The translations under genes were made by a program, and so were the position numbers. DNA of 64,000 nucleotides from an uncultured Chloroflexia bacterium (GTDB lineage: Bacteria > Chloroflexota > Limnocylindria > Limnocylindrales > CSP1-4). Below the pieces are notes generated by a model, which saw only the letters and a program-made list of their open reading frames with translations, ran no database searches and was not told where the DNA came from. The stretch covers positions 240,780 to 304,779 of the forward strand of contig CAVSWB010000004.1 of assembly GCA_963731635.1 (NCBI GenBank), read 5' to 3'. The stretch's first letter is position 1, and every line of letters begins with the position of its first letter. This document shows positions 38,862 through 48,510 of the stretch, one piece after another.

Positions 38862-38989
38862 GGTCGACCTCCTTGTGCTCAAAGTAGGCCATGTTCGGGC
38901 AGGCCACAAGGGCCCACACGAGCCACGGTCCCACGCGCGACGCGGCGGGCCGGTACCATGCTCGCCAGGAGCGAAAGCGGAGGAGATCG

Positions 38990-40405
38990 ATGCAGCTCTG
39001 GGGCGGTCAATTCAGCGGGACCACGGACGAGCGAGTGGCCGATTTCACGAGGTCGGTCGAACTCGATCGCGCCCTGGCGCTTGACGATATCGCGGGTTCG
39101 ATCGCCCATGTGCACGGCCTGGGTCGGGCCGGCCTGCTCGCCGATGAGGAAGTGGCGGCCCTCGTCGCGGGTCTCGACGCCCTCAGGGCCGAGGTCGTGA
39201 CCGGCGCCATCCGCTGGGATCCGGCGCTCGAAGACGTCCACATGAACCTGGAGTCGGCGCTGCAGGCCCGAATCGGGCCGCTCGCGGGGCGCCTCCACAC
39301 CGGCCGTTCGCGCAACGACCAGGTCGCCACAGATCTGCGGTTATGGCTGCGGCGCACGATCGACGAGCTGGACGCAGCTGTCCTGGAGATGGAACGGGCG
39401 CTGGTCCGGCTGGCCGACCGCGACGGGGAAGCGATCCTGCCGGGCACGACCCACATCCAGCCGGCGCAACCGGTGCTGCTTGCCCACCACCTGCTGGCCT
39501 ACGTCGAGATGCTCGAACGCGATCGAGGCCGCCTGGCGGACTGCCGGCGGCGGGCGAACGTCAGCCCGCTGGGCGCGGGGGCCCTGGCCGGAGCCGGTTA
39601 CCCGCTCGACCGTGAGGCGACCGCGGTCGAGCTCGGCTTCGACGGCGTCACCGCCAACTCGCTCGATGCCGTCAGCGACCGCGACTTCGTGGCCGAAGCC
39701 CTGTCCGCATTCGCCCTGTGCATGGTCCATCTCAGCCGGCTGGCCGAGGAGATTACCTGGTGGTCGAACCCGCGCTTCGGCTTCGTCCGCGCCGCCGACG
39801 CATTCTCGACCGGTTCCTCGATGATGCCGAACAAGAAGAACCCGGATCCCGCCGAGCTGGTGCGCGGCCGCGCGGCTCGGGTCATCGGTTCGCTGACCGG
39901 CTTCCTGGCGCTGATGAAGGGCCTGCCGCTGGCCTACCAGCGCGACCTCCAGGAGGACAAGCCGCCGCTCTTCGAGGCTGCCGCCACGCTCGAGGCATCG
40001 CTCGGCGTGATGGCGGGCATGGTGGCGACGCTGAGCGTCGATCGTGCCCGGATGCTGGCCGCGGCCAGCGAGGGTTACATAACCGCCACGGCCGTGGCCG
40101 ACGCGCTCGTCCGCCGGGGAGTGGCGTTCCGCGCCGCTCACCACATCGTCGGCGCGCTGGTCGCGGCGGCGGAGCGCGGCGGGGTCGGGCTGGACGTCGT
40201 CGACGACGCCGCGATATCCACCGCTCTGGCCGAATCCGAGGACGATGTCGCGCGTCGGCTGGGCGAAGATGCCTCGATCGGCGGCGAGCTGCGGGCCGCC
40301 GCGGCCCTGGACGGCGCACTGGCCAGCTGCGATGTGATCGGCGGGACGGCGCCACGCCGCGTCGCGGCGGCGCTCGCGGCAGCAAAGGCGCGCCTGGGAC
40401 TCTGA
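38990..40405 (+). CDS. argH: Argininosuccinate lyase
   Basis: LWGGQF, EDVH, HTGRSRNDQ, TGSSMMPNKKNPD, DLQEDK. Confidence 0.96.
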   Translation: MQLWGGQFSGTTDERVADFTRSVELDRALALDDIAGSIAHVHGLGRAGLLADEEVAALVAGLDALRAEVVTGAIRWDPALEDVHMNLESALQARIGPLAGRLHTGRSRNDQVATDLRLWLRRTIDELDAAVLEMERALVRLADRDGEAILPGTTHIQPAQPVLLAHHLLAYVEMLERDRGRLADCRRRANVSPLGAGALAGAGYPLDREATAVELGFDGVTANSLDAVSDRDFVAEALSAFALCMVHLSRLAEEITWWSNPRFGFVRAADAFSTGSSMMPNKKNPDPAELVRGRAARVIGSLTGFLALMKGLPLAYQRDLQEDKPPLFEAAATLEASLGVMAGMVATLSVDRARMLAAASEGYITATAVADALVRRGVAFRAAHHIVGALVAAAERGGVGLDVVDDAAISTALAESEDDVARRLGEDASIGGELRAAAALDGALASCDVIGGTAPRRVAAALAAAKARLGL

Positions 40406-40514: not shown

Positions 40515-40591
40515 GCAACCAGCCCGGAACCAGAGCGCGACCCGAGGTCCACCCCGTCGCTACTGAACACCGCCTCACGCAACCCTACGCT
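40515..40591 (+). promoter_or_regulatory. amtB1 promoter: five 11-bp-periodic boxes plus -10 TACGCT
   Basis: GCAACC 40515, GGAACC 40526, GCGACC 40537, TCCACC 40548, GCTACT 40559; TACGCT 40586. Confidence 0.78.
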
Positions 40592-40652
40592 TTCGCGAGC
40601 CGGCGGAGAGCTTTCCGTTCGGTTGCGGCAATGGGACGAAGGAGAAACGCGC

Positions 40653-41876
40653 GTGATCAACTCCGGCGATACCGCCTGGGTACTTACCTCGACGGCGCTC
40701 GTCATGTTGATGACGCCCGGTCTGGCCCTCTTCTACGGCGGCCTCGTACGCCGCAAGAACGTGCTCAGCACGATCATGCACAGCGTCTTCATCCTGGCGC
40801 TCGTGAGCGTCACGTGGGTCCTGTTCGGGTTCACCCTGGCCTTCGGCAAGGACGTCAACGGCTGGGGGATCATCGGCGGAATCGATTACATCGGTCTGCA
40901 CGGCGTGGGCAAGGAGCCTTTGACCCAGTACGCACCGACGATCCCCGGGTCGGCCTTCATGGCCTTCCAGATGATGTTCGCCGTCATCACTCCGGCCCTG
41001 ATCACCGGTGCTTTCGCCGAACGCAAGCGCTTCAAGGCCTTCGTCCTGTTCTCGCTCCTGTGGACGCTGGTCGTCTACTCGCCGATCGCCCATTGGGTCT
41101 GGGGCGATGGCGGCTGGCTGCGCAATCTCGGCGTGCTGGACTTCGCGGGCGGCACGGTCGTCCACATCAGCTCCGGCGTTGCGGCGCTGGTCGCCGCCCT
41201 CGTCCTCGGCCCGCGTGTCAAGCGGGAGTCGGAGCGCTTCGAGCCGCACGACGTCCGACTGACCGTGATCGGAGCGGCGCTGTTGTGGTTTGGCTGGTTC
41301 GGCTTCAACGGCGGATCCGCTCTGGCGGCCAACGGCACGGCCGCGAACGCGTTCGTGGTCACGAACACGGCGGCGGGCATGGCGGCGCTGACCTGGGTCA
41401 CCGTCTCGTGGCTGCACAAGGGCACTCCCAGCGTGACCGGAGCCGTGGCGGGCGGTGTGGCCGGGCTGGTGGCCATCACGCCGGCCTCGGGTTTCGTGGA
41501 CGCCAGCTCGGCCATCATCATCGGCCTTGCCGCCGGCATCACCTGTTACGCCGCCATCCTCCTGCGTGAGCGGCTCAAGGTCGACGACGCGCTCGACGTC
41601 TGGGCCGTCCACGGCGTGGGCGGGACTCTCGGCGCGATCCTGACCGGCGTCTTTGCGGTGGCTGCCGTCGGTGGCGCATCGGGCCTCGTCGACGGCAATG
41701 CCGGCCAGGTCGGCAAGCAGCTGGTCGCGGTGGCGGCGACCTGGATCTACAGCGGTATCGCCACCTTTGCGATTCTCAAGATCGTCGACTTCTTCGTCGG
41801 GCTCCGAGTGGAGGAGGCCGAAGAAGAGGCGGGCCTGGACTCCTCCCAGCACGGCGAGGTTGCATGGCAGAGCTAG
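40653..41876 (+). CDS. amtB: Ammonium transporter (copy 1)
   Basis: GDTAW, TPGLALFYGG, FQMMFA, DFAGGTVVH, WFGWFGFNGGS, DDALDV, HGVGG, GLD..QHGE. Confidence 0.97.
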   Translation: MINSGDTAWVLTSTALVMLMTPGLALFYGGLVRRKNVLSTIMHSVFILALVSVTWVLFGFTLAFGKDVNGWGIIGGIDYIGLHGVGKEPLTQYAPTIPGSAFMAFQMMFAVITPALITGAFAERKRFKAFVLFSLLWTLVVYSPIAHWVWGDGGWLRNLGVLDFAGGTVVHISSGVAALVAALVLGPRVKRESERFEPHDVRLTVIGAALLWFGWFGFNGGSALAANGTAANAFVVTNTAAGMAALTWVTVSWLHKGTPSVTGAVAGGVAGLVAITPASGFVDASSAIIIGLAAGITCYAAILLRERLKVDDALDVWAVHGVGGTLGAILTGVFAVAAVGGASGLVDGNAGQVGKQLVAVAATWIYSGIATFAILKIVDFFVGLRVEEAEEEAGLDSSQHGEVAWQS

Positions 41877-41979: not shown

Positions 41980-42056
41980 GCAACCGCCGCGCCACCAGAG
42001 CGCTACCCGAGGGTTACTCGGCCGCTACTGAAACGCGCTTCCGGCCTCCCTACGCT
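41980..42056 (+). promoter_or_regulatory. amtB2 promoter: five 11-bp-periodic boxes plus -10 TACGCT
   Basis: GCAACC 41980, GCCACC 41991, GCTACC 42002, GTTACT 42013, GCTACT 42024; TACGCT 42051. Confidence 0.8.
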
Positions 42057-42117: not shown

Positions 42118-43338
<1,221 letters not shown>

Positions 43339-43399
43339 CGCAACCTCGGTTGCATTCGGCGAGCGGGCCGGGGATCGAAACAGGCGTTCGTACCGAACG

Positions 43400-43476
43400 G
43401 CAACCCCCGCGCCACCCCGGCGCTACCGACCGGCCACCGCCGCGCTACTGATATCGGCCGGCTCCCTCAATAGACT
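43400..43476 (+). promoter_or_regulatory. Third copy of the amt-type promoter, upstream of a microprotein ORF
   Basis: GCAACC 43400, GCCACC 43411, GCTACC 43422, GCCACC 43433, GCTACT 43444; TAGACT 43471. Confidence 0.78.
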
Positions 43477-43526
43477 TCAGGTCAGTGAAGGGACGGGGTC
43501 CCTGGTTCAGCCGAAGGAGCCGAGAC

Positions 43527-43610
43527 GTGATCGCAGCCGCTTTCATCAGCTTCGCAATCCTGGTCGTGGCCTGGTTCGTGGCCCCGTCTCGCGCCCACGA
43601 GGCCGAATAA
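43527..43610 (+). CDS. 27-aa single-TM microprotein MIAAAFISFAILVVAWFVAPSRAHEAE (not in the ORF track)
   Basis: AAGGAG RBS at 43514-43519, GTG start, TAA stop, its own conserved promoter, hydrophobic helix. Confidence 0.7.
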   Translation: MIAAAFISFAILVVAWFVAPSRAHEAE

Positions 43611-43727
43611 CCTCAAACGCTCCAAGCGCGGTCGTCCGGATCGCGCCGCTCAGTTCGAACACCGACCCGCGCACCTTTCGGCAGGCAGCGCGGGTTCGTT
43701 GTTTCTCGGCCTGGGCCTCGCCGTGGC

Positions 43728-44441
43728 CTAACCCGCGTCGCCCAGCCGGTAGCCCACGCCGCGCACCGAGGCCGGCACCGGAGCACCCGATTCCTCGAGC
43801 TTCGTTCGCAGGCGAGCCAGGTGTGGCTTGAGCCATTGCGGGTCCGGGTTCGGCTCGCCCGGCCAGCCGGCCGAGAGCAGGCTGCTGTGCGAGACCACGT
43901 GACCTCCCGCCGCGACCAGTGAGGCCAGCAGGCTGTATTCGGTGCGGGTCAGGACGAGCTCGTTGCCCGAGACCGCGGCGGTGTGGCGGCCGCGGTCGAG
44001 GACGATCGGTCCCCAGCGCAACTCGCCGACGCCACGCGGCTCGGCCTCGTTGCCGCGGCGGCGCATGACCGCGCGTATCCGCGCCAGCAGCTCTTGCTTG
44101 CCGAACGGCTTCACCACGTAGTCGTCCGCGCCGGTGTCGAGCGCCTCCACCTTGGCCCGCTCGTCGGCCTCGCCGGTCAGGACGATAATCGGCGTCTGGG
44201 ACATGCGGCGGATGGCCCGGCACACTTCCACGCCGTCCAGGCCCGGCATCGCCAGGTCGAGCAGCACCAGGTCCGGACGCTCCTCGGAGAATCGCCGCAG
44301 GGCCGTGTTGCCGTCGTACGCGGTCACGACACGGTGGCCTGCGCGACCGACGAGGGCCGAGACGGCTCCGACCATCGCGGGCTCGTCGTCCACGACGAGG
44401 ATGAGCAGGCCGGTATCTCCTGCGGAATCCATCTGGCTCAA
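43728..44441 (-). CDS. OmpR-family response regulator (KdpE-like)
   Basis: ILVVDDE, LVLLDLAMP, GADDYVVKPF, wHTH LTRTEY...VRGVGY. Confidence 0.92.
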   Translation of the reverse strand: MSQMDSAGDTGLLILVVDDEPAMVGAVSALVGRAGHRVVTAYDGNTALRRFSEERPDLVLLDLAMPGLDGVEVCRAIRRMSQTPIIVLTGEADERAKVEALDTGADDYVVKPFGKQELLARIRAVMRRRGNEAEPRGVGELRWGPIVLDRGRHTAAVSGNELVLTRTEYSLLASLVAAGGHVVSHSSLLSAGWPGEPNPDPQWLKPHLARLRTKLEESGAPVPASVRGVGYRLGDAG

Positions 44442-44469
44442 CTCGCCTCCTGTGGTCCAAGCCGGCGGC

Positions 44470-45864
44470 TCAGGCCCCGTCCTCCGACATCACCCCGGCC
44501 TCGGGAGCATTATCGCCGTCTGAAGTTTGGCGCATCTGGGGCACGGCCACCATGAACCGGCTGCCACCGTATCCGTTGGACTCCAACCAGACTCGCCCGC
44601 CCATGGCGGTCATGAGCTGGCGGGCCGCATACAGGCCGATCCCGGAGCCGCGGGGCCGGTTGGCCGTCCGGACATAGGCCTCGAAGACGGAAGCCCACTC
44701 CGGCTCCGGAATTCCGGAGCCGTCGTCGGTGACGTAGACCTGGACCTCGCCGTCGGCCGCCCAGGCTCCGATGCTCACCGCTCCGCCCTCCGGCGAATAC
44801 TTCACTTCGTTCTCGAGGAGATGTTCGAGAACCTGCCGGAAACGACCCTCGTCTCCGAGGCCGATCAGCGGCGCTTCGGTTCCGGAGCGTCGCAGGGGAT
44901 GGCTGCGCAGCAGCGGGATCATCTCGTCGACCGTGTCATTGATGGCGCGGGCGAGATCGAAGGGATCGCGCGACAGGCCCGCGGCCAGGCCTTCGCCCCG
45001 CACGGAGGCCAGGATCGAGTCGACGAGCCGGTCCAGCCGCGTGACCTGGGCTATCGCCTGGTCGCGCCAGTCGGCCACGACCGCCGGCTTGGGGAGAGGG
45101 CCCGCCGCCCTGGTCTTGCGGTTGTCGCTGGCGGCCCTGGCCGCGTCTACGGCCGCATCCGCGAGCAGATCGAGATAGGCCCGGACGATTGCGAGTGGCG
45201 TCCGCAGCTCATGGGTCACGACGGCAAGAAGCTCCGCGCGGGCGCCGTCCAGTGCGGTGAGGGTTTCGAGCTGCGCTTCGGCCTCCGCCTGTAACCGGCC
45301 CTTCTCGACGATGCCGCCGAGGAGCGCACTGATCGTGACCAGGAACTCGACTTCTTCGGGCGAGAACGTCCGGGCCTCGATCGTCTGGACGTTCAGAACG
45401 CCGATGATCAGATCGTTCCACGGCAGCGGAACCGAGAGCATCGAGGTGAACTGCGACTGGTCGAAGCCGGGCACCCACTTGAAGCGGGGGTCGACCCGCA
45501 CGTCCGGCGACGCCACCGGGAGACCGATCTCGGCGGCGCGACCGGTCAGGCCCTCGCCGAGAGCCATCGTTACGCGTCCGATCTGGTCGCGGTCGAGGCC
45601 GTTGGTCGCCACCAGCCGCAGCCGGGCCTCGTCACGCTCTCTGAGATACAAGGAGCAGACTTCCACGTCGAGGGCGCTGGTTGTGCGGTCCACGATGGTC
45701 CGCATCAGCTCATCCCAGTCGCGTGCCGTGGTCAGCAGCTTCGCGAACTCATGCAGGACGGACAGCTCGCGCAGCTTGCGCTCGGCGTCGACACGGCGCG
45801 GCCGCGCCGAAACGGCACCCGGCGTCGTCGGGCCTGGGGGGGCGTTCCGGTGCGGGGCGGTCAA
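44470..45864 (-). CDS. Cytoplasmic GAF-domain sensor histidine kinase
   Basis: GAF (VCSLYL...LVATNGL...GEGLTG...SMLSVPL...GVLNVQ), THELRTPL, DDGSGI, GSGIGL; no TM segment. Confidence 0.9.
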   Translation of the reverse strand: MTAPHRNAPPGPTTPGAVSARPRRVDAERKLRELSVLHEFAKLLTTARDWDELMRTIVDRTTSALDVEVCSLYLRERDEARLRLVATNGLDRDQIGRVTMALGEGLTGRAAEIGLPVASPDVRVDPRFKWVPGFDQSQFTSMLSVPLPWNDLIIGVLNVQTIEARTFSPEEVEFLVTISALLGGIVEKGRLQAEAEAQLETLTALDGARAELLAVVTHELRTPLAIVRAYLDLLADAAVDAARAASDNRKTRAAGPLPKPAVVADWRDQAIAQVTRLDRLVDSILASVRGEGLAAGLSRDPFDLARAINDTVDEMIPLLRSHPLRRSGTEAPLIGLGDEGRFRQVLEHLLENEVKYSPEGGAVSIGAWAADGEVQVYVTDDGSGIPEPEWASVFEAYVRTANRPRGSGIGLYAARQLMTAMGGRVWLESNGYGGSRFMVAVPQMRQTSDGDNAPEAGVMSEDGA

Positions 45865-45877
45865 GTGGTCGCTCGCT

Positions 45878-47164
45878 CTACTTCACGGCGCTGCCGGGCG
45901 CGTCGTAGACCTTCGTCGGCAGATCCTCGAGGAGCGGGTCCGTCCACGTCCAGGCCGCACCGTGGTGCCGCCCCACGGCGCCGTGGCGGGCCGCCTCGGT
46001 TCGGAGCGGCAGCCCGAAGATCTCGATGAACCCGACCGCGCTGGCGTGGTCGAAGGTATCGTCGGCTTCGTACGTGGCCAGCCCCTTGTCGTAGAGCGAT
46101 AGCGGGCTGCGCCGGCCAACCACAACGGCGTTGCCGTGGTCGAGTCGGACCCGGACGTCGCCGCTCACCACTCGCTGGCTGCTGGCGGCGTAGCCGCGAA
46201 GGTCGCGGTGCAGGGCGCTGAACCACAGACCGTCATAGGTGAGCTGGGCCAGCTCGTCGGCGACGACCCGATTGAACCGCAGAGTGTCCTTGGAGAGCGT
46301 CAGGCCCTCGAGCGCACGGTGGGCGCGGTGGATCACGACGGCCGCCGGCGCTTCGTAGATCTCGCGGCTCTTGATCCCGACCAGGCGGTCCTCGACGTGG
46401 TCGACGCGGCCGATGCCGTGCGCCGCCGCGAGGTCGTGCAGCCGCTCAACGAGCGTGACAGCCTCCAGGCGCTCACCATCGAGCGACACCGGGACACCGC
46501 CCTCGAAGCCGATCACGATCTCGACGGCCGCCGGGGCCTTGTCGGGATCGACGGTCCATTTGTAGACATCTTCGCGCGGCGCGGCCCACGGATCTTCGAG
46601 GATGCCCGCTTCGATGGAGCGGCCCCAGAGGTTCACGTCGGTCGAGTAGATCGATTCCTTGGTGATCGTGATCTCGATGTTGCGGGCCTTCGCGTATTCG
46701 ATCTCCTGCTCGCGCGACAGCCCCATGCCGACGCGCATCGGGGCGATGACGGCCAGAGATGGATCGAGGGCGTGAGTCGCGACGTCGAACCGCACCTGGT
46801 CGTTGCCCTTGCCGGTGCAGCCGTGGGCGACCGCGTCGGCGCCTTCCTTGTGCGCAACCTCGACGAGCAGCTGGGCGATGAGAGGGCGCGCCATCGCCGT
46901 CGCCAGCGGGTAGACGCCCTGGTAGAGCGCACCGGCCTGGACATGGGGCCAGCAGAAGTCGCGCACGAAGCGATCCCGGCCGTCGACGACGTAGGCTCGC
47001 GCCGCACCCGCGCTGATCGCTCGACGATCCACGTCTTCCTTGAGCACGCCGCCGCCGAGATCGACCGTCAAAGTCACGACCTCGACGTCGTACTGCTCGC
47101 GCAGCCAGGCCACTGCCACCGACGTGTCGAGCCCACCGGAGTAGGCGAGGACCACCTTCTTCAT
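45878..47164 (-). CDS. argG: Argininosuccinate synthase
   Basis: VVLAYSGGLDTS, HGCTGKGNDQVRF, NLWGRSIE, GIKSREIYE. Confidence 0.97.
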   Translation of the reverse strand: MKKVVLAYSGGLDTSVAVAWLREQYDVEVVTLTVDLGGGVLKEDVDRRAISAGAARAYVVDGRDRFVRDFCWPHVQAGALYQGVYPLATAMARPLIAQLLVEVAHKEGADAVAHGCTGKGNDQVRFDVATHALDPSLAVIAPMRVGMGLSREQEIEYAKARNIEITITKESIYSTDVNLWGRSIEAGILEDPWAAPREDVYKWTVDPDKAPAAVEIVIGFEGGVPVSLDGERLEAVTLVERLHDLAAAHGIGRVDHVEDRLVGIKSREIYEAPAAVVIHRAHRALEGLTLSKDTLRFNRVVADELAQLTYDGLWFSALHRDLRGYAASSQRVVSGDVRVRLDHGNAVVVGRRSPLSLYDKGLATYEADDTFDHASAVGFIEIFGLPLRTEAARHGAVGRHHGAAWTWTDPLLEDLPTKVYDAPGSAVK

Positions 47165-47704
47165 CTGGGAGCCTCCGAATGCGCGAATGATCGGCCGGTC
47201 GGCAAGCCTGTCGGACCGGCCGGCTGGTATGACTGGAAGCGGACGAGCCACCGTTCGAGGGCGGCTTCGCTTTCGAAAAGTACGAGCAGCGTGTTGTCGC
47301 CGGCCAGCGTGCCGATCTGTTCGGTGAGGCTCGACTGGTCGATGGCCTGGGCGATCGCTCCCGCCGAACCCGGCGTGGCGAGGAGAACGATGCTGAGCCC
47401 GCTGCGGCCGAACCTGCACCGGGATGTCCTCGAGCAGCCGGGCCAGCCTGGCGTCGTAGGCGTCACCCGTGGCGGCGCTCTCGGGCGTGGCGTAGACGTG
47501 GCGGTCGCCGCGCGGTGCTTTCACAAGCCCGAGCTCGGCGGCGTCGCGGCTGACGGTCGCCTGAGTCACCTCGAAGCCTCGCTCACGGAGCAGCTCGACG
47601 AGCTCCTCCTGGCTGCCCACCGGCAGCAGCGAGATCAGCTCGAGCAGCGTCCTCTGGCGGCGTTGCTTGGAGCTCGGGAGATTGCCGTTGACGGCCATGG
47701 TCAT
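47161..47704 (-). CDS. argR: Arginine repressor, frameshift about 47415
   Basis: SQEELV..L, VTQATVSRD, LGLVK; C-terminal TPGSA, GTLAGDNT in a second frame. Confidence 0.9.
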
Positions 47705-47711
47705 TTCGATC

Positions 47712-48510
47712 TCAGCTTCTGCCGGCGGAGACTTCGCCGGCCTCGCGGGCGGCGGTGATACGCGTACCGAATTTCGGGTCTCCCAGCGCGCGCGACAGGG
47801 CGTGCGCGTCCGCCGGAATCGCAGATGACCGCCTGGGCGCCCGCCCAATTCAGAGCCTGCAGAGCGGCCCTGATCTTGGGCACCATCCCGCCTTTGATGA
47901 CCCCGCCGTCGATCAGTTGCTCAGCCTCGCCGGCGGTCATGGTGTCGAGCTTCTCGCCGGCCGCGTTACGGACGCCGTCGACGTCGGTCATCAGGACGAG
48001 CTGGCGGGCGCCCAGCCCGGCGGCGATGCCGGCCGCAGCGTCGTCGGCGTTGACGTTGCAGACGATGCCGTGCTCGTCCCTGGCGAGCGGCGCGACGACG
48101 GCCACCTGGCCGGCCACGAGGAGCTGATCGAGGAAGTTGCGGCGCACCCCAACCACGTGAGCCACGAGACCCAGATCGGGCACGCGCTCCGCGATCATGA
48201 AGCCGCCGTCGACGCCGGAGAGGCCGACGGCATCCACGCCGCGGTCCCGCAGGTCGGAGACGAGCTCGGAGTTGACCACTCCCCGCAGGACGGCCGCGGC
48301 CACGTCCAGGGCGGCCTGGTCGGTCACCCGGAGTCCGCCCTCGAAGCGGCTCTGCACGCCGAGGCGCTCCAGCCACTCGGTGATCCGCTTGCCGCCGCCG
48401 TGGACCAGCACCACCGGACGCTCGCGCGCCACGCCGGCGACCTCGTCGAGCACATGGGCCTGGTCGGCGAGTGTTGTCCCGCCGAGCTTGAGGACGAGAA
48501 CTTCGCTCAC
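47712..48510 (-). CDS. argB: Acetylglutamate kinase (C-terminal frameshift about 47810 likely)
   Basis: VLKLGG, LVHGGG, GLRVTD, NVNAD, TDVDGV, GGMVPK. Confidence 0.93.

Follow-up and report, generated by a model that had tools for sequence, protein, structure and literature searches.

What is encoded in the short interval behind the second ammonium channel gene of an uncultured Chloroflexia bacterium, and why does this interval carry a promoter of its own? The DNA analyzed here is a 64,000-nucleotide (nt) stretch of contig CAVSWB010000004.1 (the window), in which two tandem amt genes, amt1 and amt2, are followed by a very short open reading frame (ORF), here called S. A first-pass annotation, made from the sequence alone, had described S as a 27-amino-acid (aa) single-pass membrane protein that is read from a GTG codon 7 nt behind a Shine-Dalgarno (SD) sequence AAGGAG and that possesses a full copy of the amt promoter. 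It had further supposed that the protein binds Amt trimers or another nitrogen-related membrane protein. In the reading put forward below, S is a translated one-helix protein of an amt-linked family and probably serves the Amt channel as an accessory subunit or modulator.

S is a conserved coding gene

The ORF described by the first-pass annotation is real, with the refinement that the ORF proper begins at position 43527, while 43514 is the first nucleotide of the SD sequence. Its translation reads V(M)IAAAFISFAILVVAWFVAPSRAHEAE*, and the full product of the frame opened by GTG-43527 is MIAAAFISFAILVVAWFVAPSRAHEAE. The genomes with which it was compared are mostly metagenome-assembled, and the relatives are non-independent samples; the assembly of the window itself comprises 3.25 Mb and is 68.8% complete.

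The intergenic DNA that contains S is kept in 21 of the 24 other genomes of the genus. The comparison with relatives and the ratio of nonsynonymous to synonymous substitution rates (dN/dS), both of which had been proposed as a check, speak for a protein-coding gene. In all of the first 20 loci, the start codon (ATG, GTG or TTG), an AAGGAG-type SD sequence 5–8 nt upstream of it and the stop codon are preserved, and the indels found there are one codon long, in frame and close to the N-terminus. In 29 distinct sequences, the 17 core codons contain 4, 6 and 15 variable sites at codon positions 1, 2 and 3, respectively, with mean pairwise differences of 0.12, 0.10 and 0.41. The dN/dS of the core is 0.128, as opposed to 1.6–5.3 in four other frames. 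The antisense frame that has the same wobble position as S gives a dN/dS of 0.24 and is open in 23 of the 29 sequences, whereas the S frame is open in all 29. For the whole ORF the dN/dS is ~0.3, an estimate in which the N-terminus is slightly misaligned. Because the substitutions follow a codon pattern, the frame is open throughout and the core dN/dS is low, S is confirmed, on comparative sequence evidence, as a genuine conserved coding gene for a one-helix membrane protein.

The conserved residues of S (A5, F6, F9, L12, V13, W16, F17, A19, P20 and S21) form one face of an α-helix, and the conservation moment along the helix has its maximum at 100 degrees (permutation p = 0.0015). Conservation restricted to one face is the pattern expected of a helix that packs on a partner.

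An unnamed protein family encoded behind amt

A first profile made from the genus detects S in 24 of 26 genomes of the genus and, elsewhere in the order, yields one weak match that is not linked to amt. The view of S as a genus-restricted orphan was overturned by an exhaustive profile search and by a class-wide search. The former, a HMMER search of 1.84 billion representatives, returns 49 matches at E ≤ 1e-3. Forty-seven of these are proteins of 27–79 aa that share the motif M-x-x-x-A-F-x-x-F-[AG]-x-L-V-x-A-W-x-x-A-P, the remaining two being longer proteins with repeats. Among 5.8 billion proteins, a word-indexed search finds 553 clusters at E ≤ 1e-3, all of them unnamed or labeled 'hypothetical protein' and devoid of a Pfam domain. 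In the class of the window, a broadened profile finds a match in 132 of 401 genomes. Split by family, these are 20/205 in f1 (19 of the 21 genomes of the window's genus and one weak match), 0/23 in f2, 52/61 in f3, 58/110 in f4 and 1/1 in f5. Eight of the positives are unpublished genomes, without which the counts are 124/393 for the class, 49/58 for f3 and 53/105 for f4; none of the conclusions depends on these eight.

S conforms throughout to the family motif M-x-x-x-A-[FL]-x-x-F-[AG]-x-L-[VIL]-x-[AG]-W-x-x-[AL]-P and has the N-terminal single helix of the family. F9, W16 and P20 are invariant in family alignments of 39 and 46 sequences. In most members, the helix is followed by a variable C-terminal tail of 10–25 aa, which often ends in an acidic residue and A-A. 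S ends six residues past APS (RAHEAE), versus 35–48 aa in most relatives outside the genus, and is for this reason regarded as a short-tailed variant. Pfam and NCBIfam contain no family for S or for 39 S-family members beyond single chance-level matches, a sequence search of the Protein Data Bank gives a best E-value of 0.2, and a search of the ESM Atlas with a 44-aa paralogue returns unnamed clusters only. By profile and motif, S is thus a member of a widespread, unnamed family of ~27–55-aa proteins.

The genomic position of the family is highly consistent. An S-type ORF is located directly 3' of amt, on the same strand, in 40 of 40 loci of the genus (some genomes contributing two), in 15 of 15 published loci of f3 with gaps of 16–30 nt, in 20 of 20 loci of f4 and f5 with gaps of mostly 21–37 nt, and in all three loci of named Thermomicrobiales/Chloroflexota metagenome-assembled genomes (MAGs). 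The MAG loci were retrieved with a five-sequence sub-alignment, the broad family alignment having no conserved stretch. In a sample of a Chloroflexota class, 30 of 166 genomes contain a family match (29 of 165 without one unpublished genome), and amt lies directly 5' on the same strand in 27 of the 29 published positives; one exception is at a contig end and the other, G516, has no amt within 2.5 kb.

The amt–S gaps of 16–37 nt outside the genus look operonic. In the window's genus, in contrast, the gap is 167–392 nt long and holds a full promoter copy, so that this genus alone appears to give S a promoter of its own and to transcribe it separately from amt. The three genus genomes that lack S (G010, G018 and G024, 90–93% complete) also lack amt. 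Additional copies of amt come with additional S-type genes. In G014, a second amt located 135 kb away is followed, 87 nt on, by a 44-aa paralogue of S (L074 3516–3650), which has an acidic tail and its own terminator, lacks a box array and is unique among 51 genus genomes. In G023, a 32-aa S-type ORF, MLIAAFASFAALVAVWVMVPSSAAGECEEALD, is found 40 nt after amt1 (L144 1968–2066), and S itself is found after amt2. A tandem duplication of an amt–S unit, with the first S lost in most species, would fit these arrangements. The supposed link to Amt is strongly supported by all three patterns: the slot behind amt in two phyla, the joint absence from genus genomes and the S-type genes of extra amt copies. 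Binding itself is inferred.

Three side observations concern the same slot. In G511, a genome of the Chloroflexota class that also encodes a PII protein, two tandem S-type ORFs lie 3' of one amt (L157 ~2480–2667). In genus g28 (L068), the place behind amt is taken by a ~75-aa cysteine-rich ORF (CxxC and further Cys/His) with no S-type gene, and a paralogous GAF kinase follows. The Amt proteins that adjoin S-type genes in Chloroflexota (L119–L121, L145–L174) are 60–69% identical to the actinobacterial-type Amt of the window, which suggests either that these Amt proteins form a single conserved clade or that the amt–S pair has been transferred between phyla.

A third copy of the amt promoter in front of S

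Repeat finding (families D4, D6 and D17) and alignment both identify the region upstream of S as a third copy of the upstream regions of amt1 and amt2, in agreement with the first-pass claim. The common layout consists of five xxxAC pentamers in strict 11-nt phase, then TGA and, ~16 nt further on, a TAnnnT −10 hexamer. The S array has a sixth in-phase box, CGTAC at 43389, where the amt1 and amt2 promoters have five, and its last box is followed by a TGATAT in overlap with the −35 position. Across 28 distinct sequences of the genus, every box keeps its AC, and the GCAAC and GCTACTGA boxes are conserved. Judging by the −10 hexamer, transcription would start near 43483.

Within the genome of the window, this architecture is specific to the three genes. 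When the whole 3.25-Mb assembly is scanned for AC boxes (five in phase, three or more G), four overlapping matches result, which are exactly the amt1, amt2 and S promoters. Control spacings of 8, 9, 10, 13 and 14 nt give 0, 2, 0, 0 and 0 matches, respectively, and a spacing of 12 nt, a multiple of the codon length, gives 25. An 83-nt weight matrix applied to the whole assembly has the same three promoters as its sole matches. Similar box arrays are present at the amt promoters of sister genera. A generic promoter and terminator scan reports no site at S, where the hairpin loop and the GC-rich hexamers fall outside the rules of the scan.

The arrays resemble the cis-element of the actinobacterial regulator GlnR, which, in the available text of the report describing it, is made up of 5-nt sites that are 6 nt apart, run head to tail and reach the −35 region (PMC10235972). 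Four GlnR protomers bind the tandem sites, and three boxes are described at amtB of S. coelicolor (PMC10235972). As in the GlnR promoters covered there, the arrays of the window contain at least four pentamers with 6-nt gaps, oriented head to tail and abutting the −35 position (PMC10235972). The pentamers themselves are different: the G-x-x-A-C boxes of the window (GCAAC, GCCAC and GCTAC) agree with the published GlnR consensus gTnAc/GaAAC at G..AC alone. The boxes are presumably read by an OmpR/GlnR-type activator, for which the adjoining OmpR-type regulator is an alternative candidate.

Sharing of the promoter would lead to co-expression of S with amt1 and amt2. S would be induced together with both genes, presumably under nitrogen limitation, because it is preceded by a separate copy of the amt promoter with the xxxAC boxes and the −10 hexamer, to which a structured 5'-untranslated region (5'-UTR), a strong SD sequence and a terminator are added.

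Possible association of S with the Amt channel

The transmembrane helix of S would comprise residues ~2–20. The tail (SRAHEAE) is probably cytoplasmic, which corresponds to an N-out/C-in topology, because the segment preceding the helix is uncharged and R, K or H follows APS in nearly all members of the family. With its conserved face (A5, F6, F9, L12, V13, W16, F17 and P20), S would dock onto the membrane surface of Amt, where it could stabilize the trimer, tune gating or control turnover. Turnover of a transporter is controlled by small proteins in the case of MgtS, MgtR and MgtU, which act on MgtA and MgtB according to the accessible part of a review (PMC10710835). Given the short tail, it is suggested that the helix alone carries the function of S in the genus.

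Several points weigh against this interpretation. First, prediction of a complex of the Amt2 monomer with S, in which both chains were provided with alignments, is classed as 'weak support', with a median score of 0.44 (0.44, 0.63 and 0.07 in the three runs). The best of three controls scores 0.00, the runs share at least 0% of their contacts, and the pLDDT (predicted local distance difference test) of the partner is at least 67. The pass mark of this procedure is met by 116 of 157 solved complexes and by 2 of 215 mismatched pairs; scores of ≤0.60 include 18 of the 157 solved complexes and both passing mismatches. The prediction is given little weight because it is weak, its three runs disagree, S, with fewer than 30 residues, is shorter than any protein of the calibration set, and the Amt monomer artificially exposes the trimer interface. 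Second, many relatives have amt without an S-type gene, and S is therefore dispensable for the function of Amt. Outside the genus, f1 contains one weak match in 184 genomes, and in g8, the closest of the sister genera examined, a single amt is followed after 109 nt by the regulator gene, with no S. Third, the co-loss and co-translocation of S and amt in the genus are partly explained by linkage alone. Fourth, the longer C-terminal tail of most family members is missing from S of the genus. Fifth, the boxes agree with the published consensus at G..AC alone. Finally, the sole RNA run found, a metatranscriptome, contains a fraction of 0.06 of the sampled words.

The alternative that survives best, although it is unlikely, is that S is a real small membrane protein that is induced with amt and has its target in another membrane component of nitrogen limitation, such as another transporter, a protease (e.g. 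FtsH) or the bilayer itself, with the place behind amt merely serving co-expression. The tie to Amt indeed consists of synteny and promoter sharing alone, the predicted complex is weak, and small proteins such as MgtS have more than one target, as the review notes in its accessible part (PMC10710835). However, the order amt–S is kept in two phyla with gaps down to 16–37 nt, and the extra amt copies of G014 and G023 are each accompanied by a separate S-type gene. Both features are expected of a stoichiometric partner and not of a general stress peptide, and they favor the assignment of S to the Amt channel.

The S transcript and the remaining alternatives

In 28–29 sequences, the transcript has the same order of elements: a 5' hairpin, the near-invariant CAGCCGAAGGAGCC, the ORF, a hypervariable spacer, and a conserved hairpin with a T-rich tail. 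A GGGAN...NTCCC stem, or an alternative at the same place, is found in nearly all of the 29 distinct 5'-UTRs, and its fifth pair alternates between C-G and U-A (GGGAC...GTCCC versus GGGAT...ATCCC). A pairing of the SD region with the codons of W16 and F17 appears in the consensus fold, and there is no covariation there among the 29 sequences. The stem arms of the terminator, as aligned, are CCCGCGCACC-TTTCGGC-AGGnnGCGCGGG, and two pairs of its consensus structure covary (A-U to G-C in 12 of 29 sequences).

The terminator hairpin is single-copy in the genome. Besides the window's own genome, 12 of 16 others in the genus contain it, and it was found in none of 184 others in the order; it occurs both with and without the regulator gene downstream. 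Being single-copy and also occurring where the regulator is missing, the hairpin is part of the S gene and terminates a ~220-nt RNA. Its assignment to the regulator gene, or to a repeated element, was rejected on the same grounds. As a side observation, the loop and GC core of the hairpin (43663–43698) are invariant in 29 of 29 genus sequences, and the preceding spacer is hypervariable; judged by this alignment, the constraint on the hairpin exceeds the needs of termination alone.

Such constraint raises the question of whether the functional product is the RNA, i.e. a ~220-nt nitrogen-regulated small RNA or an antisense RNA to the convergent regulator gene, with the ORF incidental or secondary. 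This was the fallback named in the first-pass annotation, and it is very unlikely. Both the 5'-UTR hairpin and the 3' hairpin with its loop vary less than the non-coding DNA around them, and the invariance of the 3' GC core in every sequence is in line with an RNA function. The substitutions, however, obey the codon pattern of the S frame, the family members of other lineages keep the peptide and not the flanking RNA elements, and Rfam has no match for the transcript. A further point against an antisense role is the conserved terminator: its hairpin and T-tract, located between S and the regulator, end the transcript ahead of the latter gene, which lies 3' of S in only 20 of the 40 genus loci.

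A type-I-toxin-like or pore-forming hydrophobic peptide gated by nitrogen status is more improbable still. A length of 27 aa, one hydrophobic helix and a short charged tail are reminiscent of type I toxins, and the 5'-UTR is structured. S, however, is present in one copy per genome and has a strong, exposed and conserved SD sequence, and its operonic slot behind a transporter gene in other lineages is unlike type I toxin loci. No antisense gene is evident at the locus, although no search was aimed at antisense RNA, and S has no match to a toxin family; 1 of 39 family members has a chance-level match to HokA (E 0.011).

Least credible, and largely refuted by the distribution of the family, is the idea that a third tandem amt copy is decaying and has left S as a remnant, which stays open by chance: the three promoter copies at the ~1.46-kb unit spacing would be explained by it, and S has a faint local similarity to transmembrane helix 11 of Amt1 (score 39, reached by 5 of 500 shuffles), but similarity to Amt2 is nil (304 of 500 shuffles reach the score), independent homologues lie behind single-copy amt genes in other families and in another phylum, and S is under purifying selection. 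Derivation of S from amt was rejected as well, with a profile–profile (hhalign) probability of 0.6% (E 0.1) at a different helix and no nhmmer match of the S transcript to the amt loci at E < 1.

S and the scarcity of PII proteins

The Amt channels that adjoin S are found in genomes in which PII proteins are rare. PII (PF00543) was not found in the genome of the window or in any of 41 genomes of the genus (16 of high quality); it is present in 7 of 121 genomes of the order and in 14 of 401 genomes of the class (0/61 in f3 and 2/110 in f4), where amt genes are nevertheless common. It was likewise not found in the three named Chloroflexota MAGs, and the GlnD/GlnE domain (PF08335) was not found in five high-quality genomes of the genus. 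With PII nearly absent, the classical GlnK plug cannot act on these Amt proteins, and nitrogen signaling in the class must be PII-independent.

In the Chloroflexota-class sample, a clear PII is found in 3 of 30 S-positive and 44 of 136 S-negative genomes (odds ratio 0.23, Fisher p 0.014, kinship ignored). In the class of the window, the corresponding numbers are 2 of 132 and 12 of 269, which is not significant (p 0.16, kinship again ignored). The anticorrelation of S and PII in gene content is suggestive only. S and PII co-occur in five genomes (G511, G548, G584, G436 and G462), and many relatives without PII have amt without S, for which reasons a replacement of PII by S is hypothetical.

A broader scenario, which is doubtful and offered tentatively, would make the S family a cross-phylum membrane subunit of one Amt clade that takes the place of GlnK where PII has been lost. 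The family would occupy the slot of glnK and be anchored to the channel by the helix face, its cytoplasmic tail, which is long in most members and shortened in the window's genus, would tune or gate the channel or affect its turnover, and the separate promoter in the window's genus would set the dose of S apart from that of amt1 and amt2.

Relation to known small proteins and to GlnK

KdpF is a ~29-aa single-helix subunit of the K+ pump KdpFABC, which is made only on induction of the transporter and is thought to stabilize the complex. Like KdpF, S is a single helix of fewer than 30 aa that is encoded together with a transporter. The two have no sequence relation (no NCBIfam or Pfam match at E-values of up to 1 or 10), the partner of KdpF is a P-type ATPase, and its gene lies 5' of the transporter genes, unlike S, which lies 3' of amt and in the genus has its own promoter. 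The neighbors of S are amt genes and a two-component system, not kdpABC.

The accessible part of the review on small proteins describes AcrZ, MgtS, MgtR, MgtU, MntS and SgrT as proteins of fewer than 50 aa, mostly with a single helix, which are co-regulated with a transporter or via its regulator (PMC10710835). AcrZ and MgtS have promoters separate from that of the transporter (PMC10710835), as S has in the genus. S is similar to this class in its size of less than 50 aa, its single helix and a promoter array common only to S, amt1 and amt2, and is homologous to none of the six (no Pfam or NCBIfam family). A small membrane protein acting on Amt is not given in the available text of the review, in which PII/GlnK is the sole regulator of Amt (PMC10710835). 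According to the same text, the GlnK gene is classically located directly 3' of amt, is co-expressed with it, and its product regulates the channel from the cytoplasmic side (PMC10710835). S occupies this very slot in the genome, but it is a 27-aa membrane helix unrelated to PII, whereas GlnK is a 112-aa soluble trimer.

A further parallel is sP36 of Methanosarcina mazei, a small protein that is made when nitrogen is limiting, binds AmtB1 and exerts control over ammonium uptake (PMC10714827). By that description, sP36 is a 61-aa cytoplasmic protein that is membrane-bound only after an ammonium upshift and recruits GlnK1 (PMC10714827); S, compared on these terms, is an integral helix in a lineage without PII. 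No small protein other than sP36 is known to act on an Amt. Full-text searches of the literature listed no paper on a membrane microprotein whose gene lies behind amt. New here are the family of small proteins and its proposed target; small-protein regulators bound to transporters are an established type.

Neighboring genes in the window

The features of the locus are listed in Table 1. The repeats that contain amt1 and amt2 are 82% identical in DNA sequence, their duplicated promoters are spaced at ~1.46 kb, and the two genes are the only Amt genes detected in the assembly.

Table 1. Features of the amt–S locus and adjoining genes (positions in the window)
Feature	Position	Strand	Description
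argH	38891–40405	+	Pfam/NCBIfam
amt1 promoter	40515–40591	+	Five boxes and TACGCT
amt1	40623–41876	+	Tandem paralogue of amt2, ~80% protein identity (Pfam, NCBIfam)
amt2 promoter	41980–42056	+	Five boxes and TACGCT
amt2	42118–43338	+	Pfam PF00909, E 1.5e-131; NCBIfam TIGR00836; directly 5' of S, presumed partner
S activator-box array	43389–43454	+	CGTAC 43389, GCAAC 43400, GCCAC 43411, GCTAC 43422, GCCAC 43433, GCTAC 43444
S −10 hexamer	43471–43476	+	TAGACT; nearly invariant in 28-sequence alignment; aligns with TACGCT of amt1 and amt2
S 5'-UTR hairpin	43489–43503	+	AGGGAC-GGG-GTCCCT; folded
S Shine-Dalgarno sequence	43514–43519	+	AAGGAG, 7 nt 5' of the S start; surrounding CAGCCGAAGGAGCC nearly invariant
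S	43527–43610	+	ORF for 27-aa single-pass membrane protein; GTG start 43527–43529, TAA stop 43608–43610
S terminator	43663–43706	+	Hairpin CGACCCGCGCACC-TTTCGGC-AGGCAGCGCGGGTTCG, T-rich tail
OmpR-type response regulator	43728–44441	−	Convergent with S (Pfam/NCBIfam)
GAF-HisKA-HATPase histidine kinase	44470–45864	−	Soluble, without transmembrane segment
argR/argG frame	45878–47848	−	Pfam/NCBIfam

The soluble GAF-histidine kinase, with or without the OmpR-type regulator, is found family-wide inside an arginine cluster of the order argR, argG, kinase, regulator, which is convergent with argH (43728–45864 in the window; L053–L059 and L067–L071). In several cases, amt genes are oriented convergently with this kinase, or with a paralogue that shares ~50% identity with it (e.g. 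in L067 and L068). Together, the kinase and regulator may form an amt-linked system that senses nitrogen or arginine. The adjoining 656-aa frame at 45878–47848 contains an ArgR DNA-binding domain (residues 60–123) followed by both argininosuccinate synthase domains (residues 231–616). In sister genera, the two parts are separate tblastn segments, and the frame may represent a fusion or two genes that share one frame.

Significance

Control of Amt is understood almost wholly through PII/GlnK, and the genomes described here belong to a class in which PII is so scarce. Both there and in a second phylum, amt is followed by the gene for a conserved micro-membrane-protein that family libraries have not named, a functional gene below the usual length of ORF calling that recurs in hundreds of metagenomic clusters. 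If binding of S to Amt holds true, ammonium channels would have their first small transmembrane partner, and ammonium uptake a PII-independent route of regulation.

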